A stretch of 62,610 bases of DNA, filler included, from Hausera hauseri (Eukaryota): the NCBI GenBank assembly GCA_046269625.1. It is 10 parts of 10 records of this genome, joined end to end, with 100 filler letters (N's around TTAATTAATTAA, not from the genome) between each part and the next. Parts side by side here need not be neighbours in the genome. Positions count along the whole stretch, not along the records: positions 21,442 to 31,166 come from JBJURY010301056.1; 9 more parts are not named here. One strand, written 5' to 3'. Made by a program: the position numbers and the translations under genes. The notes beneath the pieces are model-generated. The model ran no database searches and had not been told where the DNA came from. It was given only the letters and a program-made list of their open reading frames with translations. This document shows positions 2,201 to 47,789 of this stretch, in pieces (within the stretch, counting starts at the first letter, position 1; each line of letters begins with the position of its first letter).

Positions 2201-2225
2201 ATGCAAAATATTTATGCCCGTGTCT

Positions 2226-6674: not shown

Positions 6675-9470
6675 GGATCCTTTTATCAGAATTTACCTTT
6701 AAGATTTTAGCATATTCCTTGAGTAAAAGCTTAGGTACCGTACTGGAAGTCGTATCTTCGCTAGCTAACTTAATTAAGGTAGGAACTAGATGTCTCAATT
6801 GATTTTCGGTGAGGTCCGCTTCAATTAATTGAATTAAATCTTTTTCGATTTGTACCGGGTCCAGCAGCATTTTTACGTTGAACCTTTGGTCCCGAGAATA
6901 TACCTTCATTTCATCCAATCGTAATGGGGTTTTAGGATTCTCGGCAATCATTGCGTCTAAATATGCCTCCAATTCTGTTTCATTCTCGTTATCTGGCGGT
7001 TGATAGTCCTTTGACGGTGCATCAATTGGTTTATCCACACTTGTGGCCCATGTGGTTTTTCTGAGTTCTTGTAGTTTCTGTTGGATTTGGACCATTTTCA
7101 TCATTCAGAAACATCTCCCACTAGCGGATGTTCGGTGGAGCAGTTTTAACAACGAACGTAATTCTTCGGGTCAAATTAATCCCTTTTCTTGATATTTCGT
7201 TAGTTCAGACGTGACATCTCTTTGCCATCTTTGAACAAATTGTGACTTGTCAGCCTTTTCTGTTTCTGTAAGGGCTTATTTGTTTTTAAAAACTTCGAGT
7301 TCTCTAGCTAGTTCGTCTAATCTCATCGCTCTCTGTTTCATCTAAATGCAAGTTTCTTCGACTTGCTGTATTTGTTGCAACAATTGTCTTTACTTCTCGT
7401 CACCAATTTCTGCCATTTCTGCCATCAATAGCGCTAATTCGTACATATCCTTATTACTTTTTGAATACAGATCTATCGCATCTAATAATTTTTTACAAAC
7501 TTGATCTCTTCGAAGCTAAGGTGGTGGTCATTCTTTATTTTAATAAGTTCGGTACGATGTCTCTGATCCGTTCCGTTTATCCATTCTTGTAGCTGGTGTA
7601 AGAGCTTCACCGTTTCTTGAACGATCGACCGATGTTTTGGGCAAAAGTTTAAGGTTTTAAGATCTCGAATCAAGATTTCTTCGATAGGTTTGGCTGTCAA
7701 CCACCGTATTCCTTTCAGGAGGACATCTCGTAATCGCGGATGGAAATCGCAAGTCGCATTTCGCTTCCGCATGAAGTTTGTTTTTTCGATCATTTTATAT
7801 ATATCGTCTAGTATTATCATTTCTTGTTTCTTTTCAATAAAGTCCAATTGACGCGGTGCCTCGAATTGGGTTCGGATGTCAATTTCTGCTTTAATCGTAT
7901 CTAGATTTCGGGCGTCTGCTTCCAATTGCTTCTTTACTGTAGGTTCCCTCTCCGGAAATTTATTCTTCCGTCTGTTTATTAAGTCGCTTAACCTTGGTAT
8001 TACCTTGGACCATTTGTTCAACTGATTGGCAATTTCTTGCTTCGCTAAGATTGCTTTGTTTAACATTTTGCAAGCATCCTCTAGTTCATCATGTGGACCT
8101 TTAATAAAATCGATGACCCAACAGGCATAGTCAAACTCATCCTTGTATTTATCGAACTCGAGGATACAAGCCAGTTGGCTGCATAATCCTATTCCTTAGA
8201 CCATATATCTGCAACGGTTTTTCGGCTTTAATCCTAATACTATTTTCCAAACTTGTGTATTTCTTTGATGCCGTCGAAGCGACCTTTATCATTTCCATCA
8301 AGGGTGGAATATCTACACAACCTATGCCCAATATCTCTAGTTCATTTGCATCTCGTTCTTTTACCGGCTTTCCCTTATGTTGTTCGACTATTGCAAATCC
8401 AATTTCATTCATGACACGCTCTAAATTACGTACGGCTCTTTTAAATTTTGGGTTCGTTTCTAATGTAATTAACAGCAACTAAGCCTGGTTGATTCTAGCT
8501 ACAATGTCTTGAGTAGTTTTATCCTACATCTCCGGAAATTTCGTCTTGCTTTAAATCCACCGTTCTAATTCGGGTTTCCATTGAACTAGTGTTTCTTTTG
8601 CCACTTCTTCAGTCTGATCTAAGTCTATAGCTTCCTTTAGTTTCCCTTCACTATATAGCTTCATTTTTTTATATAATCTCTCTACAAACTGTTGTTCCTT
8701 GACAGAAATATCCACTTGCTCACTTATTGCTTTAAGTTTCTCCAGATTCTGTTGCATTACCTCTGAGTTGAGACAATTCATCCTCATTCTTCTTAATTCT
8801 TCAGCATTTTTCCATGAGCGTCTGATTATCCACTTCTTAGGATCAAGTTTTTCCTCTTGTTCTATTTCCTGTTCGCTAGTAGGTAAGGGACATACATCAT
8901 TTATCTCATTTACAGGTTTCGTCAGCTCATCGTATTCGCTATGCATAGCAAGTTAAATTCCGGACCGTTCGAGGTGCACTCTATGTCGCTTTCTAATGAG
9001 ATTTAGGTTTCTCTCCTTGTGCTCGGCTTCTCCTTAAACATTGGGGATCTTGAACGATCTTTAGGTTTTCACCTCAATGATGGACTACGGCCTTTATTCT
9101 TGGTAATTTTAAGTATACGCAGTTGTAGAAACTCTTTTCTTTTGTCGGCCTCGGCCTCCTTGGTTACGTTTTTATAGCATACTCGGGTTCTACATCTAAA
9201 TCTACTTTATCTGGAGTCTCAGGGTTTCCTGTTTCGATTGACCCTTTGTCTACCGTAGGAACGTTCTTTTTCCGTGCCATATCACTCAGCCTTGGTGGGG
9301 CAATGGAACGTTCATATTTCGTTTCCGGTTCGCGCATACCGTGATAAACTTTTAATTATCGTAACTTATGCTCGTACTCATTCCTAGCCACTAAGACTTT
9401 AGAGTCTTTAGTATCAGGTTGGGCCTTTAAAAAACGTTGTAAATCTTGTATCTCAATGATCATACCCGTG
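6675..9470 (-). pseudogene. Long decayed alpha-helical/coiled-coil coding region downstream of gag, product unknown
   Basis: Successive minus-strand E/K/L/Q-rich ORF fragments (8551..8946, 8149..8478, 7482..8066, 6675..7104), several in one frame separated by isolated stops. No DTG/DSG or YxDD motif seen. Confidence 0.6.
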
Positions 9471-9472
9471 TC

Positions 9473-10676
9473 TCAACGGACGCCGTAAATGGCTTCTAAG
9501 TTTTCGTTTTTAATAACATTAGTTTTACTAGGTTCGACAAACGAAGCACTTGGCGGGTTTGGAAAGGATCTTGCTATATGTCCTTCTTGTCCGCATGTAT
9601 AACAAACTAAGTTGCCGTTTCTACCGATTCTTTGTCGTCCATCTTCCTTTAACGGAGATTTCGATCTACTCGGATTTCTATTGTAGCCTTGCTGCGACGG
9701 AGTCTGCGTAGGGTCTTCATATTGGCGATTATTGTAACTTCGGCTGTCACTCTGTAGGTTAAAACTTTTGGGGCCATCTAGGCGTTTATCCGTATGATAG
9801 CTTGATTTACTAGAAAAAATATTTCCATTATTATCAAAATTTTGATTACTGTATCGCTCGGTTCTGCGATCATAATTACCGTTCTTGTTCCGATCCCCAT
9901 AATTCTTGTTAAATCGTCTATCATTTCTATTCTTCCGATTTCTATCGCCTCGATCACATTGATCACTATTTCTATCATTTCTGTCATTGTTTCTGGCATA
10001 TCTATCCAATGCAATTTCTAAGTCCTGGGCCAATTGCAATGTCCTATCAAAATTCTCCGGGCGTGCTAAAATCAATTGCTTTACTATGTCTTTAGACCAA
10101 ATACCATTTATTAATTGCGTCATCATAATGACACATAAATCTAGGGGACTTCTTTTTTCTGCGGCTGCGCGTTCTGCTTCATTTTTAGCCTTTGCTATGT
10201 TCGCTATCCTTAAGGTGCTTAAGTAACTGTTTGCCAATTTCTTTAAAGCAAAAGAAAATTGGGTTATCGATTCACCCTTTTGTTGAACTCTTCTGAAAAG
10301 CCATGAGATTTTGTTGCGGAGTTACAGTCGGCATTAATTTTCGATTCAGGACTCCTATCAGTGAGGACCAAGTTTTCTTCTCATCATCCGTGAGTTCTCT
10401 ATAGGCATCAGCGGCCAAATTCTTTAAATATAACGACAAACGTTTAATCATCACGTTAGCTGCTAGTCCAGCACCTTCTGCATGCAACTTATATGTCTTT
10501 AAGAATTCATTAAGTCCGTCCGGGTCTCCGTCGTACGCCGGAAGATTTTGCGAATCAAATGTAAAAATATCCAGTTTTTGAGCTATTGCTTGATTTTCAA
10601 CCATATTTTCAACGTTTGTTACATTTTGCTTAACTACCTTACGAGTTCTAGTTTTCTTATCCGGCTTTAAATTCAA
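9473..10676 (-). pseudogene. gag: Ty3/gypsy Gag (capsid + R/N/D-rich linker + degenerate zinc knuckle), frameshifted
   Basis: LPAYDGDPDGLNEFL...LSLYLKNLAADAYREL...TWSSL; QLINGI...ARPENFDRTLQLAQDLE; CYTCGQEGHIARSF (CCHC with the last Cys replaced by Phe). Confidence 0.88.
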
Positions 10677-11454
10677 AGGGCTGTTCGATAGCGTCTAGAT
10701 CAATAGGTTCAGTGTTAATTAAGTTTGATTCAGATAAAGTGCGTCTACTCAACGTCTCACCTTGTCTATATACTTTATTGCTTGTTTCGCGAAAGTTAAT
10801 ATTCTCCTTACCGTTTAGAATGAGATTTAAGTTATCTTCTGACTTATGTCTATCAATATTCGTTCTTGACTCAATAATATGTCGTTATAATACTGAGGGT
10901 TTTCTTTTAGTCCCAAATTTAATTTCACAAATTNNNNNNNNNNNNNNNNNNNNNNNNNNNNNNNNNNNNNNNNNNNNTTAATTAATTAANNNNNNNNNNN
11001 NNNNNNNNNNNNNNNNNNNNNNNNNNNNNNNNNATGTTACATCTTAAGAAAATATTACACAATTTAATTATAAGTAATGTGTAAAGGATCACTTATCTCC
11101 AGAAATCTGGTTGAGTGCAAAAAGGCTATAAAAGCTGACAGAGAGAATTGACCCGGTAGCTTTGGATTAATACAGAAACCTGAAACGACTGACTTTGATG
11201 CTTTGAGCAGAAGCATCAAAGTCAAGTTTATTTATTTGTGTTTGGTTTTATTTGCATAATATGTCATAAACAAAAGGTATATTTTAATTTCTTCTGTTTG
11301 GTTATTGTACATTTAAGTGACATAACATGTCGATTCAGAGTCAAGTATATGAAAATTCGCTCACACCCTCCAAAGGTACCCTTTCATTCATCTCCGTTAA
11401 TTCTCAAACAGTTACGTTAAGTGTTAATTGATCTGCATGGGTACTCATTCTCTC

Positions 11455-15139: not shown

Positions 15140-16175
15140 TTTCGACGGAAATAAAGAGTTAGAGGTGTTGTGGTACCCTATGGAAATTCAATAAAGTAAT
15201 CCGAATCACATATAATATTGACTTCAACATTGTTTATAGAAGTATATGCCACGGGTAGGTACCTTCGAATATCGAACTTGACAATGGCATTGTCACCAGC
15301 AGTATACTGGTTACTTTCCGGACAAATCGCACGCAGTAGTGGTACACGTACTCCACAGACAAAAATGGGTTCGCTGAGGTTCGTGTATATGTACATTTGA
15401 TGTAGTCCATTTTTCAGTTTTGGTTTAAATGTCGCAACATGTGTCTTCTCCGAAAAAAACCGCTGTTTTTCAAAACACATTACCATAGTCAAAGCCTTAT
15501 CCAACGAAATTTCGACTACATCTTTGCTTAGTTCAAATGTGAAGTACCCATTTGTATCTGATTTGAAATTTTTAATTAAATGTTTGTACCTTATAGCCGA
15601 AAAGTGTCGGCAGAGATCCACTACAGATTCACGAGAGACATTATCGCCAATTAGTATACCTGATTCAAACACCATTGATATATTTTGTCCATTGAAGACA
15701 ACGTTCACAGTTGTTTCAAGATTTGTATTTTGCTCATTAGCAAAAATACTTGCACCTTTGACTTTTGTATTTTTAAATCCGAATATTTTGGCCATTTCAA
15801 TGGATGCGAAGCGGATAGTAAATTCAATTTTATAATCAAACCGTGCTTTTCCATCTTTTAGGATAACACGGATTCTATCTTCTTTTATACCCTTACTCAA
15901 GTAGCTGTAAAAATGTAAAAGATTCCGGGCAACAGTTTATTATCTCCAATTTGTTGATTATATTATTCAGTTGCCATGACATGGTAAGTCGTGCAATAAG
16001 CTATTTTCGTAGTGCCTTTCAATATTACCGGTACACAGGGAAAGTTAAATTCTGCGAGAGCAACTGCAAATGTTTGTATAAATCCAATGGACTATCACAA
16101 TCTACAACGTATTGATTGGCCGAATTATTCGGACGAGTCTCAGGAAAAATGTTGCTAGGTAACACAATGTAAAGA
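15140..16175 (-). pseudogene. Polinton minor capsid protein (penton, single jelly-roll)
   Basis: N-terminal LYIVLPSNIFPETRPNNSANQY; C-terminal MYIYTNLSEPIFVCGVRVPLLRAI...YLPV...INNVEVNI...IEFP...LTLYFRR (ORF 15178..15900). Confidence 0.85.
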
Positions 16176-16385: not shown

Positions 16386-18871
16386 GTTCGACATCTGTGT
16401 ATACCGAATAAGGTATTTAACTCTTTAAAAAGCGATGATTCGAACTGTGAACCCCTATCAGTGGTAATGCGCAAGGGCGTACCAAAACGGGATATCCATC
16501 CGTTAAGAAACTGTTTAGCAATTGTTTTAGCTGTTATATCCCTAATTGGATAAACTTCCGGCCATTTGGAAAAACGGTCTACACAAGTGAGACAATACCG
16601 ATTACCATCGGAAGGAGGCAACGGACCTACTATATCCAGGTGTATATGCTGAAAACGAGCACTTGGGGGAATAAATTTTCCAAATGGGCTTTTGGTATGC
16701 CGTGTAATTTTGCATTTCTGGCAACTGATACAAGCTCGAACCCATTCCTTAATATCCCTGGAGATTGATGGCCACACATACCTTTGACTAATAAGTTTCA
16801 GTGTTGCTCTACCACCTGGGTGTGATAAAGAATGCAACTTATGAAAGACTACACGCCTGAGACTGTCTGGAACATAAGGTCTCACTATACCAGTTGACAC
16901 ATCACAATGTAACTGCACGGATGGTTCTCCCACTGGCATTGGCTTAAGCTCTAAAGATGTTTTCCTTTTATTTAACATGATTTCTTTCAATTCAGAATCT
17001 GTTTTCTGCTCCTCAGCCATTAACTCATAGTCAATTTGTGTGGGCATATTAATAGACATAATTTGTATCCGCGATAAGGCATCAGCTACCATGTTATCGC
17101 TACCCTTGATATATCTAATATCGGTTGAAAATTGCCCCACAAATTCTAACTGACGAGCCTGACGAGGAGAACATTTGTCATCTCGTTGCCTAAATGCAAA
17201 TGTCAGCGGTTTATGATCTGTATATATAACAAACGGACGCCCCTCCACCATATGCCGAAAATACTTAACAGCAGCATAAACAGCTAATAACTCTCTATCG
17301 TACGCGCTGTACTTTTGCTGAGCCCCTGTTAATTTTTTTGAAAAAAAACCTAAGGGCTGCCAACCTTTCTCGACCCCCTGGTGGAGTGCCGCTCCAATAG
17401 CTATTTCAGATGCATCCACAACAATTGCCATCTGTGCATTCAAAACAGGATGTGCTAAAAAAGTAACCTTTTCCAGGTCAGATTTACATTTATAAAATGC
17501 TGCTTTTGCATCCTCTGTCCACTGTATCTGACGTTTATCCTTCTTTTTGGCACCTTTTAAATAATGAGTTAACGGTATTTGTTTCGCCGCAGCATATGGT
17601 AAAAATTTTCTATAGTAATTAAGCATGGCTAAGAATCGCCTCAATTCCTGAATTGTATTTGGCAACGGAAATTTAGTAATGGCCTCCACTTTCTCTGGTA
17701 AAGGTTTAATACCTTCAGCAGATATGATATGACCAAGAAATTTAACCGTTGGTTTCCCCAAAACACATTTAGAAGGATTAAGTTTAATACCAAATTGCTT
17801 AAAGCGCTCAAATACCTCTGTCAAATGTTCTTTGTGTTGCACTGAATTTTTAGAACTAATTAAGACATCGTCAAAATAAGGTATACAATAATCTAAACCA
17901 TTTAACACATAGTTTATAAAACGTTGAAATGTTGATGACGCATTACACAATCCGAATGGCATATAAAGAAATTCAAAAAGACCAAACGGTGTAATCACAG
18001 CAGTTTTAGGAATGTCCTCTGGTTTAACTGGTATTTGATGGTAGGCTTTAGTTAAATCTAATGTGGAAAAAATAGTTTGACCATCCAATAGCTGTAGGCA
18101 GTCATGGATATGCGGAACTGGATACCTATCAGGCACAGTAATTGCATTTAGTTTCCTATAGTCACCGCATGGTCTCCAATCTCCATCCTTTTTTAAAACC
18201 ATATGGAGAGGACTTGCCCAACAGCTCTTTGAAGGTCGACACACGCCTGAAGAGACTAAAAATTCAAATTCTCTCCTGGCAGCTTTCAACTTATCTCCAA
18301 AAAGCCTACGAGGTTTCACTGCAATCGGTGAACCATTTGTCTGAATGGAGTGCACGATATCGTGTTTTATTTCCCTAGGAGTCATAGTTGGCTCAACTAG
18401 CATGGGAAATTTTGCCAATAGGTGGTGATATTCTGTATCCTCCCCTATTATTTTAACACTATTACTATGCTCTACCATAACAACACCTGTTGCTTTCAAA
18501 CCAGTCAGAGGATCTATTAATTTTTTATTTTTAAGATCGACTATAAGTCCAAAGTGTCTTAGAAAATCAGCTCCTAATATCGGTTTAACAACTCCCGCTA
18601 TAATAAATGGCCAATGGAATGCTCGTCTTAAACCTAGGTCTAATCTAATTAACTTTTGCCCATAGGTAGAAATTCCAGCGCCATTTGCCGCGTACAGTTG
18701 CAACCGAGAAGGCTTAGAATTTGCCTGTTTAAAGGTAATTGGCAACACAGAAATATTGGCGCCTGTGTCAATTAAATATGACACCCCTGATACCTTATCA
18801 GTTATGTATAACTTATTAACTTTAGATGCGCCGTCGCCCGTTACGGCGAGCGACGGCTGTCCGTGTTTTCC
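16386..18871 (-). CDS. pol: Pol (PR-RT-RNase H-IN N-terminal part), -1 frame relative to gag; continues at 21264-20601
   Basis: [56 protein letters not shown]; no internal stops. Confidence 0.95.
18830..18871 (-). promoter_or_regulatory. -1 ribosomal frameshift signal: G GAA AAC (18871-18865), 7-nt spacer, 11-bp stem-loop (18857-18830)
   Basis: The minus strand reads TCG GAA AAC ACGGACA GCCGTCGCTCG-CCGTAA-CGGGCGACGGC. The pol frame opens just upstream of the heptamer and is -1 to gag. Confidence 0.85.
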
Positions 18872-19611
18872 GATTTATAAGTACAGGGTGGAATGCACTT
18901 TCGCGCCTTCTGTTTATACTTCTCGTGATACCAACAAAATTTCTTTTCGCGACGAACTGGACTCCTAGATCTATCAAAAGATTTCCTACGCGTACTGCGA
19001 TATCGCTCACGTGAACGCGCCTCAAGTTTAGCCAATCTGGCTGAAATGTCACTCAACGCACCCTGTATATCATCCTTTTGTGCTGTAACGGCCTGTATAC
19101 AATTTGTATCATTCGTGACGGCCATTATGCCATCAGCCATTTCGGCCAATTTTTCCAGATTATCGGAAGAAACCGCGAGAATCTGCTGAACTTGAGCCGG
19201 CAGTCTTTGAAGGAACAGAGATTTTAAAAGCTCTTCTGTAATCCTATTCCCTGCCTTTGACTTCATTTCCAGCAGTAATCGTGACGGCTTCCTATCACCT
19301 AATTGCATACCTGAAATTAAATCACGAAGTCTCTGTTGTTCGGTTACTGTAAATTGTGTACACAAACGTTTTTTTAATAAGGTATATGGTTTCTGCTTAT
19401 CTGGATTTAAAAGTATATCCTCCACTATTACCAACTCTTCCGGCTGCAAAGCCGCTACAGTGTGATAGTATTTAGTGGTTTCATCCGTGACTTTTGCCAG
19501 GTGGAACTGGCTATCCATCTGTGCAAACCATACCTCAGGGTTCGCTCGCCAAAAAGGCGGTGGCTTAACTGCCACATGATGTAAATTAACTTGATTCCCA
19601 ACTTCTGTCAT
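18841..19611 (-). CDS. gag: Gag with CHCC zinc motif (CsRn1 lineage)
   Basis: [46 protein letters not shown]...KCIPPC. Probable start is MTEVG. Confidence 0.93.
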
Positions 19612-19955
19612 TATAACACATATAATTTTCAAGGAAAAAAAAAAGTAACTCAACTTGTATTTAAAATAGTTTTTGCAACGTGGAACAACTCAAGACTTCA
19701 ATCGAATTGCTATTGAATAAGAAATATACTCACACATCCTTCTATTGTTTAACTTACTGCAGACGCATTATTCCTTTGCAAGCTTCAAGCATTTCCAACT
19801 GGAAAAATCAACTTAGAACTCTCAGTGTCATTTGCGGCAGCCTTCTTCATCAATTGGGAATTTACCTTTACAAGGCCTGGAAAATTCTGTATGAACATTT
19901 GGTGCAAAAAAAAAAATGTAAATTCTGTTAATGCAGCGGTCAGTTCATCAAGCTC

Positions 19956-19973
19956 AAACGTCCAAGATCACCA
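19956..19973 (-). promoter_or_regulatory. Putative primer-binding site (TGGTGATCTTGGACG...)
   Basis: TGGTGA begins 5 nt after the LTR-terminal CCTACA. It resembles, but does not exactly match, the tRNA-Trp-type PBS of CsRn1 elements. Confidence 0.55.
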
Positions 19974-19978
19974 GTTCA

Positions 19979-20583
19979 TGTAGGAACCCACTTGAATCCT
20001 CGGCTATTTAAGACAATAAAATTGTATTAAATGGTTAACGAAGCTAACAACCCGGATACTTATCCGTGAACTCCTACAGAATGATTCCCTGATTTGAAAA
20101 GGTCCGCTTCCATCTTGAAAGATTTCTTAAAGGAACTTCCAGTTGATTCATAAAGACATTACTACAAAGATAACTTTTAAATTAAACCATTTATTAACAC
20201 TGTTAATAGTCAAACAATAAAATAAAAACATAATTAAATAAATAAATAGGCAACTTAGCCTTTCAAACTAAAGAGTCATAATCCGCAACTAGTTGCTAGC
20301 CACCTCAGTAGCTAATGAAGCTGCTAACACATCCGTAGACTCTGTATTTATACTTCTTTCGGCAACAAATTAGCATAATCCAGCCTTTACGTTATTTCAG
20401 TAATTTCAAACTCGTAAAACAATCAGTCAGATATTCAAATCGCTTGCCTGCATCCAGGGCTACGCAACTCGCAAGTTCGAACAACGTCATTTGGAGAACC
20501 CTCGGATAATCCTCAGATAATTCATCCACGCATGACGTTAAAGAGAAACAAACATTTCTCTGGGGATAAACAAGATCCCTACA
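19979..20583 (-). repeat. Single LTR (~605 bp), TGTAGG...CCTACA
   Basis: Inverted termini TGTAGG/CCTACA, preceded by a polypurine tract and followed by a TGG PBS-like motif. Confidence 0.8.
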
Positions 20584-20600
20584 TAGCCCCCCCCTCAGTG
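20584..20600 (-). promoter_or_regulatory. Polypurine tract (GA + G-run + CTA) immediately 5' of the LTR
   Basis: It lies between the integrase stop (20601) and the LTR-initial TG. Confidence 0.85.
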
Positions 20601-21341
20601 TCAACGATACATCTCCTGGCACTGAGTACGGAAGCGTATGGTTCGTCCTGAACGTGTGCACATTTGTCCTTTTTGAGAATTATCTTTATCCGTCTGGACG
20701 CCAGGCTCAATAACTAAAGGTTGATGTGCAGGATTAGTTATTTCAAACGGTTTTTCATAAAATACAAAAGCTGGTTTAAGTCTATCAATACTTATAGAAA
20801 CTTCCTTATTCTTGATTAATACAATAAAAAATTTCTTATTTCTTTTAATGACTGTATAAGGTCCTTCATAAGGAGGTTGTAACCCCTTCTTCATGGCATC
20901 TATTCTTATAAAAACGTGTGTAGCTGTTAATAGATCCTTTGAAATAAAAATTCCACGCTGGGTCTGCTGTCTGTCCTTGGGAGGCATCATTTTCTGCATT
21001 ACCTCTCTTAATTGCCCCACGTAAGTCGCAGGATCTGGAGAAGAATTTACAGGACACACGATTTCACTCGGTAATCGTAGTGTCGTGCCATAGACCGCTT
21101 CAGCTGACGTAGCCTGCAGATCTTCACGCCACACTGAACGAAACCCCAGCAAAATAAATGGTATGCAAGCTGACCATTTGACATTAGCATAGGTCATAAT
21201 TGCCGCTTTTAATTGCCGATGGAGCCGTTCCACCTGACCGTTAGCCGCTGGATGGTAAGCTGTAGTTCGACATCTGTGTATACCGAATAAGGTATTTAAC
21301 TCTTTAAAAAGCGATGATTCGAACTGTGAACCCCTATCAGT
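20601..21341 (-). CDS. pol: Integrase C-terminal part with GPY/F motif (continuation of pol across the circular join)
   Basis: TTAYHPAANGQVERLHRQLK...LQPPYEGPY...SIDRLKPA...TRSGR. Confidence 0.93.
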   Translation of the reverse strand, partial: TDRGSQFESSLFKELNTLFGIHRCRTTAYHPAANGQVERLHRQLKAAIMTYANVKWSACIPFILLGFRSVWREDLQATSAEAVYGTTLRLPSEIVCPVNSSPDPATYVGQLREVMQKMMPPKDRQQTQRGIFISKDLLTATHVFIRIDAMKKGLQPPYEGPYTVIKRNKKFFIVLIKNKEVSISIDRLKPAFVFYEKPFEITNPAHQPLVIEPGVQTDKDNSQKGQMCTRSGRTIRFRTQCQEMYR

Positions 21342-21450
21342 NNNNNNNNNNNNNNNNNNNNNNNNNNNNNNNNNNNNNNNNNNNNTTAATTAATTAANNN
21401 NNNNNNNNNNNNNNNNNNNNNNNNNNNNNNNNNNNNNNNNNGAAAAGTTC

Positions 21451-22467
21451 TTATTGATTTTGCAAATGAAGGAAATTCAATCGGAATAAAGCGGATTCTG
21501 TTACAACAATTTCTTTTAAGACAACAAAAATAAATAAACACAAAAATAATGAGCTAGTTGAATTGGGTGGTAAAAACATCACATCAATAAATTTCAAGTC
21601 TACTTGTATTCTATGAGCTGTACAATTATCTATGACCAACAGAACCTTTTTTTGCAATTTAATCAGTTTTAAATCCCAATCCAATAACCATTTATTAAAA
21701 ATGTTATTGTTCATCCAAGCATTTGAAGAATTATAGTAGTCAACTAAAGAAGAATATGAGAAACCTTTGAAACACCTTGGTTTAGAAAATTTACCTATAA
21801 CAACGGGTTTTAATTTATGACTACCTGTCATATTTACGCAAAACAAGACAGAGATTCTATCTTTCAATATTTTATAACCATTCCTAACCTTTTTACATAC
21901 CGATTTAGACGGAATAATTTTGTAGAAGATGCCTGTTTCATCGGCATTATAAACATTTTCAGGACCATATTCTTCAATTTTGGATTTAAGTTCATTTAAA
22001 AAATCTTCAGGTTGCATGCTTGACATAGCATGTGATTCACCATGTAAATTTCTTAACTTCAACAAATTTCTTACCTTAAAACTTCTTAACCATCCATTTG
22101 AGGATTTAAAATCTTGTATGCCATTTGAATGGGCTATTTGAACAGCCTTTTCTTTTATTATATTATCCGTAATGATAGCACCTCTTTCTTCAAGTCTATC
22201 AATCCATGCGGACAATTCTTTGTCTAAAACATTAAACTTTAAAACTGGAATTCGCCAACCACTTTTGTGCACAAGATCAGCATTTTCAATCAAAAAATCC
22301 TTGTTTCTCCTGATATCATTAATAGTTCTTCTTGAAAGTTCTTTTTTAAACTTGCCTGAAAAAACCTCTGCCACTTTGTTGTCTGAATAAACAGGATAAG
22401 ATTCAATGTACTTCAAAATTTCAATTTTTTTAATAACAGTTAACTTTACACACTTTCGCTTTACCAT
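21451..22467 (-). mobile_element. pogo/Tigger (CENP-B-like HTH + DDE) transposase, C-terminally truncated
   Basis: FKSSNGWLRSFK, LHGES, YNADETG, KDRISVL, KPRCF, NAWM, LLVIDNCTAH, FLPPNSTS. Similarity stops before the expected QPxD motif. Confidence 0.9.
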
Positions 22468-22569
22468 AAATAAGCTGCAATTAAAAATTTAAAAAAGAAC
22501 AATTAAAACAACTTTATTATGTTAAAAATTAAAAAAATCATTAGAAATGTTTTTAAAAGATGTGGCGGT

Positions 22570-24070
22570 TAGGAGTATGCCTAATTCAGCTAGGTAAAGA
22601 CGTCGTCTGTGCGTTTTATTCTTGTTCCACTCTGGATAAACAATAGCGTGCAAAACATAGCCATTATACTGCGATAAATCCAACAAATTGACAAACACAA
22701 TGATATGCTACCTTCTGCTAACAAATTTTACCGAGTACGTCCTAACTCTTTCGTCCACAGCATCCACACCTCCTTTGGTAACATTGTAATAATTCACCAC
22801 CGCAGGCTTTTTCTTACACATGGCAATACAGAAACGTCGCCTTGTTGAACTGAACACAAGGACAACTATTGCCGGCTTCGCTTTATAGGACAGCAGTTTA
22901 AATTTGTCCCTCCGAGAAAATAAATGTTTGTCAAAAATGTCTTGCGGCCGTGGTATTGGATAAGCTCCTTAGGCACCTCCTTTCTGTTTCGCCTCATTGT
23001 ACCAACTAAAGCTAGAACAGAGCTCTAGCTAACGAAATACTGGTAAAAATTGTCACTCATTATGTTCCGACCTGTGACGTAAAGAAATTGAGTCCAATCC
23101 ATAACTACCCTTCCTCCTAAGTCTATTTCTGGTTCCAGGTCTTCTTTACCGCAGTACATTTGCAAATTTACGCAGTAATAGTTTGATGAGTCACAAAGCA
23201 GCCAGAACTTAAGGCCATATTTTGACGGTTTCCTTGGCATGTATTGCTTATATGGGCACCTACCTTTTATGGGTACATGTGTTCGTCTACCGTAAGACAT
23301 TCGTGTGGAATGAAATCACGCTGAGAATTAATCCGTCGATAAGCAAACGACAGACAGCTAATTTATCTCTAGTCAAACGAGCAGCCCTGGTTTCCGTATT
23401 ATCAAAACGCAAATGACCGTATAGTTTTGAACCTGGTTAGCGATATTGTTTTGGAAAATATTGACCGCCCTTTATCTTCTGACCAGAGTTCATCAACTAC
23501 CTCCCCAGTAGCCTTATACACACCGAGTAATATCAACAGTCCTAAGAATGCATCAAGTTCTGCATTATCCATATCTGTCCAAGCGTCTCCAGCAACACGT
23601 CTAATCTCTTAGTTTTCACCAGGATCGTGCACGTTATTTCATTGTCAAATATCACCCTAAATATGTCTAGTATTGGGTTACTCATAATTCTACTGGTGGC
23701 CCACGTGGTGATGCCAGGTCGTGTTGTTAAAATGTTTTTTGTCTGCCAGCCTACCTACAACTGTCGGCATAAGTGTGCTTCACATCTCACCACTACTAAT
23801 AATAAATGAACCTACCTCAATCGATCCCACGAGCATGACGCTTCTTCCAATATCTGCATCTTATTCGTCTGAGGTTTCACTTTCTTTTGTATCTTCCATC
23901 ATTCTTTCATCAACTTACATAAAGCATACCACATATCATTAAAACAAACCATATGATATATCGTCTATCAAAGTTTATGTTATGACTTACAGCATCAGTC
24001 GAACTTCCGTCGTCATCATTTTCATTATCACTTCTGTCCAACTGTGTCCAAGTAGTTCTCTCAAAGCCAT
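22570..24070 (-). pseudogene. piggyBac (PGBD4-like) transposase remnant
   Basis: WTDMDNAELDAFLGLLILLG, LRFDN, KGRCPYKQYMPRKPSKYGLKFWLLCDS, SDNFY, VGTMRRNR, YNVTKGGVDAVD across stops and frameshifts. Ends are approximate. Confidence 0.88.
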
Positions 24071-24837
24071 AGATTTAGATAATCTTGTCGGTCGTGATAT
24101 GACATCAAATGACAAATTCAGTTGTAATCTAAATACCCTGTATATAAAGTAAATACTCATGATAAGACGTAATCACTTCGTCAAGATAAAACAGTATTCA
24201 TATTTATATGCACAAGTTACAATGTAAAGTAGATGCATCAAACAGTACATAAAATATACATCAAATGAAAGTGTACCAAAAAGGACCCCCAAAATCTTTC
24301 TCATAACATGAATTTTTGTCCACCCCAAAAGTAGGAATCTAGTGGCCCTATAACAGTTTGTGTATACCGTAAAAATATTAAGTCACTAAAAGTCATTCAC
24401 GTAACATGTACGTTTACCAAATAATAAGTAATTACTTAAAAGGACCTCACAAAATGTTTGCGGTTTAAATAAATAATATTAGGCGGTTGTTTTTATTTTT
24501 TTTATTCAAAATTGATGTTTTTGATTATCATTGGTATTTATACCAAACCAGTCAAGATGATTGGTGCATTTTTCTGTGATGGAATAAGTTTTGCGCAGTT
24601 ATAATAAATTATAAATGCTGTGTAAATACAGTACGATCAAAAAATGTTATGCGGGTAATAATGACACATTATGACAGAGTTCGTGATGACGATAAATTCA
24701 TAATTCTGGGACAATAAGCTATAAATTTTCAGTCGTTCATTGAATTTTGAGGGGTGTTGGCTGTGAAATTTTGTTGAAAATACTGGAAACATTTCTTTGG
24801 ATACCGAAATAATCAAAACTATTGTTTAGTAAGAAAA

Positions 24838-27180
24838 CTAAACATAGCCAGTTATTCTCTCGTCTAAATCGGAAATGGATTCGTGGCGTTCTCGAACTGT
24901 TACGGAATTTGTTTCCAAACTATAACTGTAGTGGGGTTTTATTCTAACGACTCGCGTATAGCTTCCGTTCGAGTAATACTTAAGCTCTGTAGCTTCAGCC
25001 CGACATACTGGACACGTGGTCTTCCCATTGTCGAGGGTCCATTTTTCGAGGCAGTCTCTGCAATATTTATGTCGGCAATTTTTGTTATCGAGGATTACAT
25101 AACCTTGTTGTAAGTTAGCTTCGCAGACGGGACATTCGTTTTCTTCCTTGCCCCAATCGTCCCGATCCAAGTCTACTTGGATGGTTAGCTCAATCGGCTC
25201 AAATACAAGGCCGTCTTTATCTTGATATAGATACCCATGGATTATCTTTTGTTTCGGGTTAACGGAGCTTTTTCTGGGATCACAATCAACTTGTATTAAT
25301 GTCCAGTCGGCCATGAGGTCCTTATCTAAGTCGGGAATGATTCCTTCCATTCTATATTTCTTGTATTGTTTCTTCAGTAGAACTCGAATTTGTCTATCTA
25401 CTGGCACTATTATCTTTCCTGTCCTTTTTGAGCGAAAAATTGAGGTTAGGTAGGTTCCGAGTTTGCTGTTTTCCCATACATAAGTATTTTCAAATACTTC
25501 TCGGTTTGGTGCGATTTTGATGAAAAACATGGCCTCCTTTATTATCTTTTTACTGTAGTACTCTGTGGTGATTAGCATCTTTGGAAATTCCTTTGTAGTT
25601 CTATAGTGTGCGTCCTCTTTATTTCTTTTCGATATCAAGGTATTGATCTCAGTTATTAGGGGACTCCTAATTCCCCTTTTCAATGGCTGTATATCTTGGG
25701 AAGTGCCTGATTGATTTTTCTGAATCTCCGTTCCTAATTCTCCGTCTATTTTCCGTCTTTTAAACAAGTAATTGTATATCGATAGGGTTTTCCTGCTTTT
25801 AGGTTTTTCTTCGACTTTCGTACCTTCGGTCGAGGTTCCGGGCCTCATTGCTTCCATGTCCTCCCTGGTTTTTATCACATCTCCTTTTGGTATTTTCTCT
25901 TTTCGAGCGTTCCGCGTTTTTGTATTCTCTTTGATGGTCCGTTCTGGTACTGTGATGTGGAGACTATGTTGGTCCGTTAACTGGACAGATCGAATTGGGG
26001 AATAAAGCTTTATGCCCTTTCTATGTTTTCCGTCTATTCGCTCTGGAACTATCGAGTTGCGTAAGTTTTCTATGGGATTCTTTGGGGTCCACTCGTGTTC
26101 CCACTTTAATTTGACATATATCTCCCGCAAGTGTTTGGACCGTTGGCTGGCCGTCATAAGTCTGGGTATCTTGCTTTGATCATCACTCATGGCCTCAATA
26201 GCTAATTTGAGAATTGCTTCTGGTGCTGTAGGTGGATTTCTCCCTTGTATTGTTTTTTTCATCCGTTCTTGAACTATTGGGTGATGGGCTATTTCCCTAA
26301 ATCCGGCAATATTTGCATCGGATATTTCTAATAGCTCCATGTTGTACTGTGCGTAATATCCAGTTACCATACATCCGTATAGGCAATGTTCTAATTCTGA
26401 TCGTACCTGATAGCTGTCTTTCCCATTTATTAATTGGTCTTTCCTTAAACCTGTTACTTCTGCATATGTTTCTTGAACATGCTTCCGGGGGTTTATAATA
26501 GTTGAATATATTTCTTCTCCATTTCTCTCTCTGACTGATACATCTATAGGAATTCCGTATCCATCGTCTCCTCTACCGCAATTTATCGCTATGATTCTTA
26601 TATTCCGTCCATCTTGGACTAATCTGTATGCTTGTCGGTGTCTATCCTTTTCTTCCTCGGTTGGTGTCTGTATGAACTGTAACGCTGGCAAACCTAAGTT
26701 GCAGCTTTCTTTACTAGTTACTTCGAACATCAACTTGACGGGTAGTACCGCTACTCGAAATTCTATCTCATACTTAACGGATTCTAAACCTTGTCCGCTG
26801 ATCTTAAACGTGCTGAACCGATACTGGCGCCCTTCATCGTTATTCCATGGCTGGTTCTTTATTCTATAATAAATCTCTCCATCCGCGAGGTGTATAAAGA
26901 GATTCTCCACTCGGTTTACTTTATTATGAATTAACTCCTTCAGATCGTACGATTTGGCTTGATGGTTGTCTCTCATAGCATATAACAGGACGGTACGGTT
27001 GTCCTCTGTAGTGCCTTTTAAATCGTTGGGTATTTCAGTCACTTTTTGATATCCCAGGTATGCTTTTGTCTGCATTGCGTCGTTGATTCTTCTGTATAAT
27101 CCTTTGGATTTCGGAATGAGGACTGTTCCGTATTCTTGTAGAAAGGCGTCGATCCTAGGTCGGCTGTTCGTACTTACCAT
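24838..27180 (-). CDS. 780-aa accessory protein: unknown N-terminal domain, inactive REX4/ISG20-like DEDDh exonuclease fold (~26110-26605), basic linker, C3HC4 RING finger (~25000-25134)
   Basis: IIAINCG..IDVSVR..NGEEIYSTIINP...VTGLRKDQL..GKDSYQVRSELEHCLYGCMVTGY..YNMELL..LKLAIEAM..KIPRLMTASQRSKHLREIY follows REX4-like spacing but lacks the acidic/His catalytic residues. The RING is CPVC-x15-CRHKYCRDC-x12-CPVC. Confidence 0.85.
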   Translation of the reverse strand: MVSTNSRPRIDAFLQEYGTVLIPKSKGLYRRINDAMQTKAYLGYQKVTEIPNDLKGTTEDNRTVLLYAMRDNHQAKSYDLKELIHNKVNRVENLFIHLADGEIYYRIKNQPWNNDEGRQYRFSTFKISGQGLESVKYEIEFRVAVLPVKLMFEVTSKESCNLGLPALQFIQTPTEEEKDRHRQAYRLVQDGRNIRIIAINCGRGDDGYGIPIDVSVRERNGEEIYSTIINPRKHVQETYAEVTGLRKDQLINGKDSYQVRSELEHCLYGCMVTGYYAQYNMELLEISDANIAGFREIAHHPIVQERMKKTIQGRNPPTAPEAILKLAIEAMSDDQSKIPRLMTASQRSKHLREIYVKLKWEHEWTPKNPIENLRNSIVPERIDGKHRKGIKLYSPIRSVQLTDQHSLHITVPERTIKENTKTRNARKEKIPKGDVIKTREDMEAMRPGTSTEGTKVEEKPKSRKTLSIYNYLFKRRKIDGELGTEIQKNQSGTSQDIQPLKRGIRSPLITEINTLISKRNKEDAHYRTTKEFPKMLITTEYYSKKIIKEAMFFIKIAPNREVFENTYVWENSKLGTYLTSIFRSKRTGKIIVPVDRQIRVLLKKQYKKYRMEGIIPDLDKDLMADWTLIQVDCDPRKSSVNPKQKIIHGYLYQDKDGLVFEPIELTIQVDLDRDDWGKEENECPVCEANLQQGYVILDNKNCRHKYCRDCLEKWTLDNGKTTCPVCRAEATELKYYSNGSYTRVVRIKPHYSYSLETNSVTVRERHESISDLDERITGYV

Positions 27181-27181
27181 T

Positions 27182-27210
27182 CTAAAAACAAATACAAAAT
27201 AAGGGTCAAT
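27182..27210 (-). promoter_or_regulatory. Putative splice acceptor for the accessory ORF
   Basis: TTGAC-CCTTATTTTGTATTTGTTTTTAG|A ATG GTA AGT. The homologous site in copy C is ATTAAC-CT(n)ATTTTAG|C AGA GTA AGT ATG (49161-49195), in the same phase. Confidence 0.7.
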
Positions 27211-27282
27211 CCTGAAACAAAGTATTGTTCTAAATTTGAACCAATTCTTTGTTTGATGGTGGAATAACCCAATCTGTAGTTG

Positions 27283-30200
27283 TCAGGTTATTCCATCATT
27301 GATTTCATCCTGTGGTACCATCACCCTTAATTCCCTTTCATTAATTTTATGACGCTTAATACAACAATTTTTGGCAATTAATCGAAAAATCGCAATGATC
27401 ATTACGAGAGCGAACACTGATATACCAATAAGCGATATTAGTGACATCGTTGTCCATTTATTTGAATTCTCTATTTTGACGGTAGTTATAATTTTGTCAT
27501 TTGCTTTGTCCTCATTTGATAGTTGCTTCATAGAAATTTCGTTTAAAGTTCGTGCTGTAAATACTACACTTTGTTTACTTTCTGCTTTCATTTGTATTAT
27601 ATAATTTGTCCTAGGTTTTAATCCGATACATTTAATTTGACGACTGCCACTTGGCAGTATGACTTTCTGGTCATTATACAATGTTCGACAGCTTATTCTT
27701 ACTTCGTATTTAAGTTTTTCTTCCGCAACGAATGTTATCTCGTTTTGTTGTGCCAGATATTTTACCGGGATCGTTTCTAATTTTTCTGATGGTGATCCGG
27801 TTGTTCGGTAGAGTCTAATAGGAACTGGGGTAATTTTATTCCTTTTTATAATCGTAGTTTTGTTCATATTTGGTTTCGGCATAATCCCTTTGAATAAATA
27901 ATTCAATAGGTAGCTTCCTAAGAAAATACTTGACTGATTGATTCTTACTTCATACAAGTCTAGTCGAATTTTATATCCATGTGCTTGAGGCGTTTTGCAG
28001 CATCTGTCGGGCCTTTCTGAGTCAATCTGACAATATTGTTGATGTAAAATCGGTTTGTCTTCCTTGAAAAAGTTAACTGTGATTACTCGTCCTTTAACCA
28101 GCCGTCTTTTAGTGTTGATTTGAACACATCGATCTTTTTGGTTTTCTTCTACGTTTTCTATATTTTCCTCTAACATTCGTTTGAGTGGGTCCATAGACTG
28201 GAGTAAGTCCTCCGAATCGGTACTTCGGTAATCTTCATAGTTTTGAGGTAGCACTAAATATGAATTCAAGATTATTTCCGCTTTTACTTTATCACAGTTT
28301 GGTGGATATAATTGGTATCGCACAGTATAAGAATGTCCATATTTCACGTTACAACAAGTCGTATCATCTTCTGACTCGAATCTACATTCGCTTTCTTCAT
28401 GGTTCGATATATCACGGAACAGTATCCGAGTTTGTCCTTCACGTAAATCTGGTAATCTGAATCCGACACATGGGGTTTCTGGTGAAAAGTAATCAATTGT
28501 TATAGCTCGTAAGAATTTTTCATCTCTTGGTTCTATTTTATTTTCGGGCAATTTTTCTGGAGGTTTTAACTCATTTAACCCAATTTTTCTAATCCCATAT
28601 ACATCACTTAATGAACTTTCATCGATCCACCATTGTGCTTGAGTCTTGGGCGTTAATGCAGCAATTAATGATAAGGCTACTATGATTTGAGCATACGATA
28701 CTGGTCTGGTGATAATTGATGAGGTCTTATTTTCACGTGGTCTCAGATTGTACTGTTTGATCGGTTTTATGTCTGTTTTAACTACTCTTTGCACTGATAC
28801 AACTTCTTCCTTTCCATTTTTATTAACATATACTGTGGTCGGCGTTGTTCGGACTACTTCGTATGGTCCTCTTCCGGTACGTGTTAATTTCAAGGATGTA
28901 CCTTTTTTGGCTACCGGATAATGTATGTAAACCCAATTTCCTTTCTCCAGATCGTGAGGCTTGATTTTTTTATCATATTGTTTCTTAAATTGTTCTTGAT
29001 ATTCGAGTGATAGTGTTTTCGCGACTTCCCAACATTTCTGCAATCTTGTTTGTAGAACTTCTGCAAAGTTTTGTTCTAAATCCTCTAAGTTCTTTTCATA
29101 TGGCGTCATGCCTAGGTCTGTGGGTAAGATTGCTTCTCGTCCGTACATCATGAAAAATGGTGTAAATCCTGTTGCTGGATGTGGGGTAGTGTTAATTGCG
29201 AACTGAGTTCCTTCTAGGAATTCATCCCAATCCTTTTGGTCCTTTGCCACTACCGTTGATAATATTCGAATAACTGTTGCATTCATTCGCTCTACCATTC
29301 CGTTGCATTGAGGGTGATATGCAGTTGTCGTTAAACGTTCGATTTCAAATATTTTAGTGATCTTCTCAAATAATTCACTTGTAAAGTTTCTTCCTCTGTC
29401 TGTTAGTATCTGTTCTGGTGGTCCATATCTGCAAATAATTTTCCTTACTACTGCATCGGCTAAGGTTTCTGCTTTCTGATCTATCAGCGCTACTAGTTCA
29501 ACGAAATGCGTTAATCGGTCTACGCATGTTAGGATATATCTGTTATTTCTGTGTGTTTTAGGCAAGGGTCCCACTATGTCCATTGACATAGCTTGCATTG
29601 GCCTATCTGGCACGTTTATGGGTTTTAATTCCGCTACATAGCCCTTTGATTTCTTTTGTTTAGTAGCACAAACTTCGCAGGCTCCTACCCAATTCTTCAC
29701 ATCGATATAGATGCTTGGCCAATAATATTTATTCAGTATCCTTTCTAACGTCTTTTTCCAGGACATATGTCCGGCTAAATATGAATCGTGTTCCGCCATA
29801 AGCACTTCAGGTCGTAATTCCTTGGGAATAACTATCAATCTCCGTCCTTTTCGTTCGTAGTATAAGACGTTATCTTGATTTGACACATGATATTTATGTC
29901 CGTGTTTTTGTAGGTGCTTTTTCAATTGTCGTCCTTTCGGTAGCTTATTGTCTTGTACGAACTCAATAATTTGTTGAATGACCGTATCCTTAGTTTGTTC
30001 GGCTGTGATTCTAACTGTTTTGTCTAATATTAGAGTCTTCTGTCGTTCAATCAGTTGCTCGAGTTGTGGTTTCTTAAATACTGTAATCGCACTGGTTTTT
30101 GTTTTAAGCCTTGACAGTGCATCGGCATCAACGTGTTTGCTACCAGGTTTATACTGAAATTCGATATTATATCTCGAGATTTCTTCAATCCATCGATTTA

Positions 30201-31166
30201 ATCTACACGTTGGATTATTAGCTCGTCCCTTTATCGTCGTAACTGCTTTATGATCCGTTACTATGATTATTTTTTGTCCATAAACGTAGACATTAAAATG
30301 TCGTAGTGCTTCTTTCACAGCTAATGTTTCTAATTCGGTGACCGAATAGTTCTTTTCTGCTTTCTTTAGTGAACGTCCTCCGTATGCTATTGGATGTTCT
30401 AATTCCTCGTCTTCACGTTTCTGAGCCAGTTCATATCCTATGCCTTCCTTACTTGCGTCCGTTTTGATGATAAATGGTAGATTGAAATCTGGATATCTTA
30501 GGACTGGTTCACTAGTTAAAATCTTTTTCATTTCGTCGAATGCCTTTTGTTCTACTTCTGTCCATTTCCACTTAATTCCTTTCTTGAGTAATCGGTACAG
30601 CGGAGCATTAATTTTTGAGTTGTCCGGCACGTAAGTGGCGTAATAACCGCATAGACCTAACCAATGTCTCAACTCTTTCTGATTTTGCGGTTCCATACAG
30701 TCCGATATTTTATTTAGCAATGATTTATCAGGTTTCGATCCTCCTTCTCCAACTATGTGTCCAAGATACGATACGGCATTTTGTGCCCATTTACATTTCT
30801 TTGGATTTAATTTTAGTCCGGCTTGTTCTAGTCGCATAAGTGTATCTTCGACATCCTTTAAATGTTCTTCTTCTGTTTTTGATGCTACCATCACGTCATC
30901 TAAGTATGCGAATGCATGGTCAAGTCCCATGAGCATCTTATTCATCATTCTGGTAAAAATAGCTGGTCCTGTGGTGATACCAAAAGGCATAACATTAAAT
31001 TCATATACACCATCGTGTGTTTTAAACGCCGTTTTATATCGATCTTCTTCTTCGATTTCCACTTGCCAATATCCCGATTGTAAGTCGAGAGTGGTAAACC
31101 ATTTTGCTCCTGATAATCTGTCGAGGGCTTCCTTTACTGATGGTAAAGGGAACGAGTCCTTCATCA
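27283..31166 (-). CDS. pol: Pol polyprotein (RT, RNase H, IN) with an in-frame ~470-aa type I membrane protein extension (27283-28695); 5' truncated
   Basis: YLDD, TDAS/ELE/TDHK, H..GH..CEVC, DDE, GPY, YNLRP. Then signal-like YAQIIVALSLIAALTPKTQA, two C..C-x8-9-CC..Y repeats, FN3-like GLKPRTNYIIQMKA, TM WTTMSLISLIGISVFALVMIIAIF and tail KNCC. Confidence 0.95.
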
Positions 31167-42819: not shown

Positions 42820-44130
42820 TTGATGAACATTAAAAAGTTTGTACAAAAGATTAGACTCGATGTACAATCTGTTGTTGATAATAATTATTTCAAGCTTTGT
42901 TTTGATATTGCGCCCTACCAACGGATATCTACTCGACTGCCTGATGAAATACTGCCTACCTTACATCTGTACACTTCTAGATTTCCATTTTGTAAGATTC
43001 AACACGGTCTTGAGATTCTGTTTACTAATGCTGAAGGCGACTTTAAGAAGGCTTATATTTCACATAGGGCTGTTCCCTATGAGCAGTGTTATCCTGATTT
43101 CGTATCTGTTAGTTTTCAGGAGAAAATTGAGAATTTCGCAGAAATGGGCAGTGGATGGAATGTGGTTAAGATATTGAAATACTGTTTTCATATAGTCAAA
43201 ACAAGCCCGCTATCCTACTTGTCTAGTAAGTCCTATATTTCAACACCCGACGCTTTGAAAATGAATCGGCCGTTCTTAATGTACAGAATGAGGAAACTTT
43301 GTGTTTCTTGTACTCCATTCTTGCAGTAACCATGTATTCTTCTATTGACTATAATAGATTTAGGGTTGGCAATTACACTCCTTACGTAGGCGAACTGACA
43401 TATTCTTTAGATGACATGCCGATGAAAATATGCAAAATAGACAAATTTGAGAGGCAGAATCTACAGTTGCCAATTAATGTCTTTTTCTACCATGTGGAGG
43501 ATGATATTGACTTTTATGAGGACATAGTAAAAATCCATTCGTTGGTACTTTGTATCGCAGCAAAAATGCGAATGGTTCTGTAGTAAATTTGCTGATTTTG
43601 GAAAATGATAATCACTTTCACTATGTAGCTGCCCGTAATCTTAAGCGGTTATTAAATATGAACAGTAAGAAAATCCGTATTCAATGTAAACATTGGTGTG
43701 AAAAATGTTTGCATGGCTTTAGGCTCGATACAGCTTACACTAGGAATTTGCCAATGTGTATGTCTTCTGTTAAGAGCATGACTTTGTACAAAATGCCCGA
43801 AAATAAATTTTGTGAATTTAAGGACTGGGCCAAATCTATAAGTCCTCCTTTCGTTGTATATTCCGACTTTGAATCTGTTCTGTGTCCTGACGATAAAGTC
43901 AAGCATATTCATTTGCCTGCTGCAGCCCGTCTCTTGTTACTAACACCAACAGGTATTGAATATAGGCAATTTGTAGGTGAAAATTGTATTGTTGAGTTTC
44001 TGGTCTTTTTAGAGGAAATGATTAAGAAACTTGTTTTTCCATGGTATGAAAATGCAAAAAAAACGATGATCCCGTTAACACCCGTTGAATGGTTTCGGTT
44101 TAGAAACACCAAAGCATGTTATCTTTGCCA
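42820..44130 (+). pseudogene. Polinton/Maverick protein-primed DNA polymerase B, N-terminal region (frameshifted, truncated by the contig end)
   Basis: GSGW, SYISTP, CFLYSILA, IDKFERQN..PINVF, VNLLIL...HYV..NLKRLL, CEKCLHGF, PFVVYSDFES (ExoI), GENCIVEF, MIPLT...CYLC. Confidence 0.88.
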
Positions 44131-47750: not shown

Positions 47751-47789
47751 CAAAACAAATAAAGGGACAAAAACGTCATCAATAGTAAC

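Follow-up and report, generated by a model that had tools for sequence, protein, structure and literature searches.

The bdelloid rotifer long terminal repeat (LTR) retrotransposons Juno and Vesta, as well as the Terminons, carry an ORF3 of the DEDDy type (PMC5408684), and Ty3/Gypsy elements of Phalaenopsis carry an AlkB-type open reading frame (ORF) that encodes an active N6-methyladenosine (m6A) demethylase close to plant ALKBs (PMC9289625); here and below, statements on published systems refer to the main texts or sections cited. GAG-ENV-POL errantiviruses with an env of the HSV/gB type have been described in Platyhelminthes, Nematoda and Bryozoa (PMC13524379), and the giant planarian gypsy element Burro/GYPSM1 places env between gag and pol and carries ubiquitin-related cargo, including an AIR1 RING zinc-finger motif, MATH and Ubi/SUMO-like domains (PMC6431247). 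On the host side, PML-I of amniotes combines a RING with a dead DEDDh domain (PXL) that binds G-rich RNA and single-stranded DNA (PMC13659232), and helps to send L1 ORF1p to the proteasome (PMC10123124). In this work, we describe an accessory ORF of a Ty3/Gypsy retroelement, found in a 62,610-nucleotide stretch of the Hausera hauseri genome assembly GCA_046269625.1 (hereafter the window), in which a predicted DEDDh fold and a predicted AlkB-like barrel, both without catalytic residues, are joined to a C3HC4 RING. To our knowledge, element-encoded suppressors of host defence have rarely been identified for animal LTR retrotransposons. The reading of this ORF that we favour, an accessory E3 ligase that counters host defence and uses the dead module as its targeting arm, has in our judgement about an even chance of being correct. 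In the full-text literature, which leaves out subscription papers, Repbase and supplements, no description of the AlkB-like plus DEDDh module or of its RING fusion in a retroelement was found, and the gene is real, selected, element-borne and apparently undescribed in print, a variant of the known capture of accessory genes.

The encoded protein has five parts, two of which, the N-terminal AlkB-like barrel and the domain of ~150 aa before the RING, were missed in an earlier annotation made from the DNA without database searches (the sequence-only reading). Comparisons below make frequent use of P0001, an intact relative found by database search, and of a broken second copy of the gene in the window. 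The window itself is a chain of short contigs with 100-base spacers between them, and adjacency across the spacers is unproven.

21442-31166: contig with the accessory ORF
24838-27180, minus strand: accessory ORF, 780 aa, intact, comprising the AlkB-like barrel, dead DEDDh domain, basic linker, middle domain and C3HC4 RING
26704-27153, minus strand: AlkB/2-oxoglutarate (2OG)-Fe(II)-oxygenase-like double-stranded beta-helix, aa 10-159 (predicted model; no HxD...H metal triad column)
26089-26604, minus strand: ISG20/REX4-type DEDDh fold, aa 193-364 (model and family profile)
25609-26088, minus strand: basic linker, aa 365-524, net charge +14, poorly conserved
25156-25608, minus strand: conserved middle domain, aa 525-675, present only in the accessory ORF, P0001 and the broken copy
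25000-25134, minus strand: C3HC4 RING, aa 683-727 (Pfam)

The frame is uninterrupted over all 780 aa and intronless. The full-length model, built from a two-row alignment, reached a pLDDT of 28.9 and was not used; structural claims cover aa 1-380 alone, modelled as a two-domain unit (pLDDT 84.9, pTM 0.78), and both folds and their packing as one unit are predictions. The second of these domains (aa 193-364) matches ISG20 with Z 18.8 (root-mean-square deviation, rmsd, 2.6 over 157 aligned residues), ISG20L2 with Z 18.1 and DnaQ proteins with Z of ~15, and Foldseek finds the same fold with E 5e-9, which bears out the dead REX4/ISG20-like domain proposed in the sequence-only reading. At the sequence level the accessory ORF by itself gives no Pfam RNase_T match and a weak match to ISG20L2 (E 0.011); the family profile reaches ISG20L2 with E 8e-28, and the Atlas search with the accessory ORF returned RNase_T clusters at 0.92.

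None of the five catalytic residues is kept in this domain. The columns expected to hold D, E, D, H and D hold A198, N200, N280, M342 and R347, and P0001 likewise keeps 0/5, with replacements that differ from those of the accessory ORF in three of the five columns. The ExoI register follows the alignment of the family and a profile made from 12 active-looking relatives alone, which place A198 and N200 in the two acidic columns; the pairwise ISG20L2 alignment gives an alternative register, N200/G202, two residues off, and neither register puts an acidic residue at these positions. The sequence-only reading had assigned the strings NCG/NYG to ExoI and LMTASQR to ExoIII; both strings occur in the accessory ORF and the broken copy as described, the ExoI assignment has to be shifted to the register given above, and LMTASQR, which had been taken for a conserved replacement, is common to both window copies but differs at 5/7 positions in P0001. 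The domain is thus best regarded as a putative pseudo-nuclease and not as an enzyme member of the ISG20/REX4 DEDDh exonucleases. That it still cuts nucleic acid through a non-canonical site is very improbable. In its favour, the fold is fully kept, as the match to ISG20 indicates, and some DEDD-fold proteins, such as Maelstrom, use other chemistry, whereas the five columns are devoid of acidic residues and His, and the replacements are not shared with P0001 at the three columns mentioned. The rotifer ORF3 is likewise a 3' accessory ORF of invertebrate LTR elements that follows pol and encodes a DnaQ-like exonuclease. It differs in that it is RNase D-like DEDDy with intact residues and that the main text describing it never mentions a RING (PMC5408684), whereas the domain described here finds its best matches among ISG20-type DEDDh proteins, lacks the residues, and is accompanied by the barrel and the RING.

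The region in front of the DEDDh domain is predicted to form a double-stranded beta-helix of AlkB-type topology. In structure comparisons, aa 1-159 of the model match Ofd2 (Z 10.8, rmsd 3.9, 139 aligned), ALKBH6 (Z 10.1, rmsd 3.3, 139 aligned), ALKBH5 (Z 9.7) and E. coli AlkB (Z 8.8), and Foldseek returns cupin and 2OG-oxygenase matches with E ~0.001. Sequence-level comparison of the barrel with E. coli AlkB by hhalign detects no match, and the residue register between the two is set by strand order alone. The accessory ORF contains no HxD/E...H metal triad motif and no 2OG-binding Arg. Among 24 family rows, the sole conserved His column is H97 (21/24), the last strand carries E/D in 23/24, a scattered HxD/E/H string is found in 5/24, and the barrel positions Y29, I50-P51-N52, K55, R62, H97, G101 and E153 are kept in 18-23 rows. 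The AlkB-type ORF of Phalaenopsis is comparable as an accessory gene of gypsy elements whose product has a 2OG-oxygenase fold, with the difference that it encodes an active enzyme, whereas the present barrel has neither a metal triad nor detectable AlkB sequence similarity.

The complete C3HC4 RING near the C-terminus, reported already in the sequence-only reading, is confirmed by Pfam matches to zf-C3HC4 (E 5e-7) and zf-RING_2 (E 1e-8), both of which exceed the curated cut-off. Its eight zinc ligands lie in C3HC4 spacing (C683, C686, C702, H704, C707, C710, C723 and C726), and V685, W714, P724 and R727 are kept besides the ligands; we take these four to be the hydrophobic E2-contact positions and the linchpin Arg that touch E2 and ubiquitin in active RINGs. 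The RING of P0001 has the same ligand pattern including W, P and R, the broken copy reads W..CPVCR, and the RING is among the regions of the accessory ORF best conserved against P0001. Because the eight ligands and these four residues are present, the protein is read as a candidate E3 whose substrate would be chosen by the front module or by the middle domain. Viral RING E3s, such as herpesvirus ICP0, are C3HC4 RING ligases with plausibly anti-defence functions. The accessory ORF shares with ICP0 a C3HC4 RING encoded by a mobile element and a plausible role as an anti-defence ligase, and the similarity is limited to the generic RING: an equine herpesvirus RING matches the accessory ORF with E 0.14, weaker than many host RINGs. 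For the middle domain there is no Atlas match, no Pfam match and no shorter relative. Kinship of this domain with the beta-rich tails found elsewhere in the family was considered and rejected, as the accessory ORF scored -3.5 bits, under 175 of the 287 shuffles that scored (of 500 made). A V-D-L-D acidic stretch resembling a SUMO-interacting motif precedes the RING in the accessory ORF and P0001, and is too short to count. The linker carries a KRRK motif (aa 474-477), a possible nuclear signal.

Relatives of the accessory ORF fall into a wider family in which the catalytic residues are often retained. A word search among 2,755 candidates found a single relative, P0001 (870 aa, 42% identity), and a search of 1.84 billion proteins with a RING-less profile of the accessory ORF and P0001 gave 35 at E <=0.001; P0001 is the only one of the 35 with a Pfam RING. 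The alignment with aa 1-380 comprises 27 of these proteins and the near-copy P0036, and the eight omitted look like DEDDh proteins of hosts or bacteria that either stand alone or carry multiple repeats. The N-terminal domain ahead of DEDDh is common to 24 rows, and the profile of the 12 active-looking rows, from which the accessory ORF was excluded, matches aa 24-376 of the accessory ORF with 101.9 bits. All five nuclease residues are kept in 17 of the 26 fully covered rows (rows with E for D at ExoII are counted, as is the near-copy P0036) and not in the other nine; three rows are partial. The accessory ORF, P0001 and P0002, the next closest relative, which stops within the DEDDh domain, form a clade with support 100/100 on a long branch. 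Since these three form a clade and the broken copy is dead too, catalytic loss predates their split. The ancestral loss claimed in the sequence-only reading accordingly holds for the window copies and P0001/P0002 and fails for the two-domain family as a whole, so that the loss appears ancestral only to the small RING-bearing clade. Catalytic losses amount to five changes on the DEDDh tree and three on the two-domain tree; repeated loss is not claimed, because a single origin is not rejected (approximately unbiased test, p-AU 0.095) and the branches are long. Tandem arrangements were also seen: P0005, P0026 and P0027 have three or four REX4-like DEDDh domains in a row, several of them degenerate.

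Searches beyond this set returned little. A pattern search found no loci of the RING-bearing clade in metagenome and viral contigs and none of the active clade in viral contigs, and a search for longer proteins that contain the DEDDh part scored none, which is weak evidence. Among RNA data sets, no holder of the sequence was listed. Thirteen short metagenome loci of the active clade were available. A retroviral aspartyl protease above the cut-off lies upstream of the active-looking relative in one of the three loci with a long upstream ORF that were scanned (L010), and at least some active relatives thus appear, from their gene neighborhoods, to sit in retroelement-like DNA too. The protease of L010 (3-1679) is fused to ~430 residues that match no known family and stands directly upstream of the family member, with no reverse transcriptase (RT) between them. 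In L001 (1773-2204 and 2669-3058, a duplication) and in L002 (588-1166), short coiled-coil ORFs separate an active-looking member of the family from a membrane protein with a signal peptide.

The setting of the gene within its element is given by the following features.

27283-31164, minus strand: Ty3/Gypsy pol with RT, RNase H and integrase in that order (Pfam domains), the 5' end cut by the contig end, running in-frame into a membrane-protein cassette
27361-28716, minus strand: post-integrase cassette with a hydrophobic signal-like segment, Cys-containing repeats and a C-terminal transmembrane helix
49238-51474, plus strand: broken second copy of the accessory ORF, with stops and frameshifts including some within the RING, behind pol and a membrane cassette on contig 44231-51592
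5179-6298, minus strand: broken class III-type fusion glycoprotein (PF24664, E 4e-20 and 6e-10) upstream of protease-RT in a third copy of the element (copy A, 1-6574), on another contig than the accessory ORF
22656-23587, minus strand: broken piggyBac-type transposase (PF13843), downstream of the accessory ORF

The pol finds its best solved relative in Ty3 Gag-Pol (E 7e-103), and the Ty3-like order of protease, RT, RNase H and integrase is recovered by combining the last three domains on the accessory-ORF contig with the upstream protease of copy A, which is 77% identical in pol. The accessory ORF starts 102 bases after the end of pol on the same strand, and the broken copy, 37-40% identical to it, repeats the order of pol, membrane cassette and accessory ORF; the location and the repeated order indicate, as the sequence-only reading had proposed, that the gene belongs to the retroelement, here a Ty3/Gypsy one, and is not a host neighbour. 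In run X1, possibly the source sample, the summed contig depth is 1,155-5,978 over the six bins that lie entirely within the ORF. The bin that takes in the 3' end of the ORF has a depth of 1,302, and the nine bins beyond it (21767-24691) have 11-96; runs X2-X4 hold smaller shares. Contig depth is not copy number and is read only as meaning that pol and the ORF recur as one block and that the 3' flank does not. One X1 contig is identical over 24308-24915 at depth 6.4, versus 135.6 for an exact contig inside pol, which hints that the shared 3' end is missing from this copy of the accessory ORF, whose last residues after the RING may be atypical. The stop of the accessory ORF is followed by ~1.2 kb without a recognised feature and then by the piggyBac transposase. 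The rival view that a host gene merely neighbours the element, or that one copy holds a chance fusion, is largely refuted, and we give it almost no credence. It could appeal to the absence of an LTR from contig 21442-31166, on which neither a purine tract nor a repeat follows the accessory ORF stop and which lacks the element's 5' part, and to the metagenome loci, 0/13 of which match the window's pol. Against it stand the intronless frame close behind pol, the same order on a second contig at synonymous saturation, the drop of depth beyond the ORF and the protease upstream of the relative in L010.

Selection on the gene, expected in the sequence-only reading, is visible in the same comparison of copies. 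Between window copies the proportion of synonymous differences (pS) is 0.77-0.82, which is saturated, and that of nonsynonymous differences (pN) reaches 0.37 over 175 codons of the barrel, 0.38 over 172 of DEDDh and 0.31 over 139 of the middle block, compared with 0.08 in RT and 0.15 in integrase; the saturation precludes an exact dN/dS, and the decay of the broken copy inflates pN. Ten of the 12 variant rows listed inside the accessory ORF are synonymous, these rows being the best supported of ~1,900 and not a random sample. Together these values indicate that the accessory ORF is under purifying selection. The membrane cassette is the fastest-diverging part of the element (pN 0.47) and has no family or structure match in Pfam and structure searches. 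Further membrane cassettes lie at 1-1050 (minus strand) and 47860-49010 (plus strand), and the Cys-containing repeats look fibronectin-III-like by eye alone.

Two described groups of elements are close in architecture. Copy A, with its class III-type glycoprotein upstream of protease-RT, would fit the GAG-ENV-POL order of the gB-type errantiviruses; copy A leaves the window before an accessory ORF would begin, so that env and the accessory ORF are known from separate contigs, and the main text on the errantiviruses never mentions exonuclease, DEDD, RING, AlkB, accessory or oxygenase (PMC13524379). Burro/GYPSM1, likewise a large gypsy, resembles the present element in its ubiquitin-related cargo and, judging by copy A, probably in the position of env, a likeness drawn by description alone; it differs in that its cargo is mostly within the polyprotein and that the section on cargo describes no exonuclease or oxygenase (PMC6431247).

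The mechanism that we propose starts from an ancestral element-borne 3' exonuclease that would have lost catalysis and retained its binding surface. The RING-bearing clade alone would then have gained a further domain and the RING, so that binding could lead to ubiquitination. The RING would engage host E2-ubiquitin, as RINGs generally do, and the dead module would dock the ligase either on a restriction factor of the host or on a nucleic-acid complex of the element itself. The target, at a guess, would be a host protein that silences the element or clears nucleic acids and that the ligase encounters on RNA, cDNA or chromatin of the element, and the action may be nuclear, given the basic motif. 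Several points weigh against this proposal. The E3 activity, the binding and the target are proposals drawn from sequence; the RING fusion is known from just three sequences (the accessory ORF, the broken copy and P0001); and the aa 1-380 model was derived from an alignment in which active relatives abound, a composition that favours the ancestral fold. With a net charge of -1 the DEDDh domain is not basic, and the barrel is just +2, whereas the domain of PML requires a positive surface, and RNA binding is therefore not implied by composition. The middle domain, which adjoins the RING, could be the actual substrate-binding part. Finally, 7/9 fully covered dead rows are without a RING, because of which the dead module would seem to have some role without the ligase.

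The last point also favours an alternative in which the dead DEDDh domain acts as a decoy or cap that shields the 3' ends of element RNA or cDNA, or sequesters partners of host exonucleases, with the RING serving for dimerisation or self-turnover only. Dead DEDD proteins with retained RNA binding do exist, among them Exuperantia and PXL (PMC13659232) and Maelstrom and EXD1 (PMC5408684). The charge of the domain speaks against this alternative, as does the retention of the E2-contact and linchpin positions throughout the readable parts of the three RING copies, and we regard it as unlikely. We attach a similarly low likelihood to a housekeeping ligase, whose RING would mark Gag, Pol or membrane proteins either of the element itself or of its competitors. 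Such a ligase would set the timing of particle assembly or keep copy number down, and no host defence factor would be its target. PML-I does apply a RING and a dead DEDDh domain against a retroelement protein, and the element encodes membrane cassettes and probably an env, proteins whose traffic commonly uses ubiquitin; yet close gypsy relatives are generally known to replicate without such a gene, and the accessory ORF diverges much faster than RT and integrase, as conflict genes tend to.

The host-directed ligase that we favour has its closest working model in PML-I, whose single chain likewise unites a RING with a DEDDh fold that has lost catalysis and which has active relatives elsewhere in its family. 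PML-I differs in being a host restriction factor, a TRIM protein with an N-terminal RING-B-box-coiled coil and a TREX1/Exuperantia-like domain with a SAM-like subdomain, whereas the accessory ORF is an element gene with an ISG20-like domain and a C-terminal RING; the two are convergent and not homologous as wholes. A more specific and rather doubtful version of our proposal makes the accessory protein the mirror image of PML-I, a nucleic-acid-guided degrader in which two disabled RNA-processing folds would read element RNA or cDNA and the RING would destroy the bound host silencing or clearing protein; modified bases would possibly be sensed via a repurposed AlkB-like pocket with the conserved His97 and Glu153. 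If so, the substrates would identify transposon-defence proteins of a host possibly without Piwi. The sequence-only reading had named piRNA silencing among the possible targets, for which we found no support; parasitic flatworms lack Piwi (PMC8191739), and a piRNA target is for that reason doubtful if the host is one of them. In that case, substrates of the ligase could reveal what replaces the Piwi pathway, a matter treated as open in the same paper. The intact RING-bearing frame makes a substrate pull-down feasible, and the family comprises versions of the module that look active, others that are dead and others again that are dead and joined to a RING, a natural series for asking how an enzyme turns into an adaptor and then a ligase.

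The rest of the window contains further mobile-element sequence. Two more distant gypsy elements, each with a short gag and an ordinary pol, are located at 16386-21341 and 51693-55775 (both minus strand). At 6675-10933 (minus strand) lies a broken gag with a zinc knuckle at ~9569-9607, and the >2.5 kb behind it are coding sequence that looks coiled-coil-like; this region may represent the 5' part of the large element family to which the accessory ORF belongs. Downstream of the accessory ORF, the ORF at 21451-22467 (minus strand) looks like a Tigger-type transposase. ORFs at 15178-15795 (minus strand) and 42823-44182 (plus strand) appear to resemble Polinton/Maverick genes. Fragments of an adducin-like host gene with a class II aldolase fold (E 4e-10) lie at 58394-59644 (plus strand).

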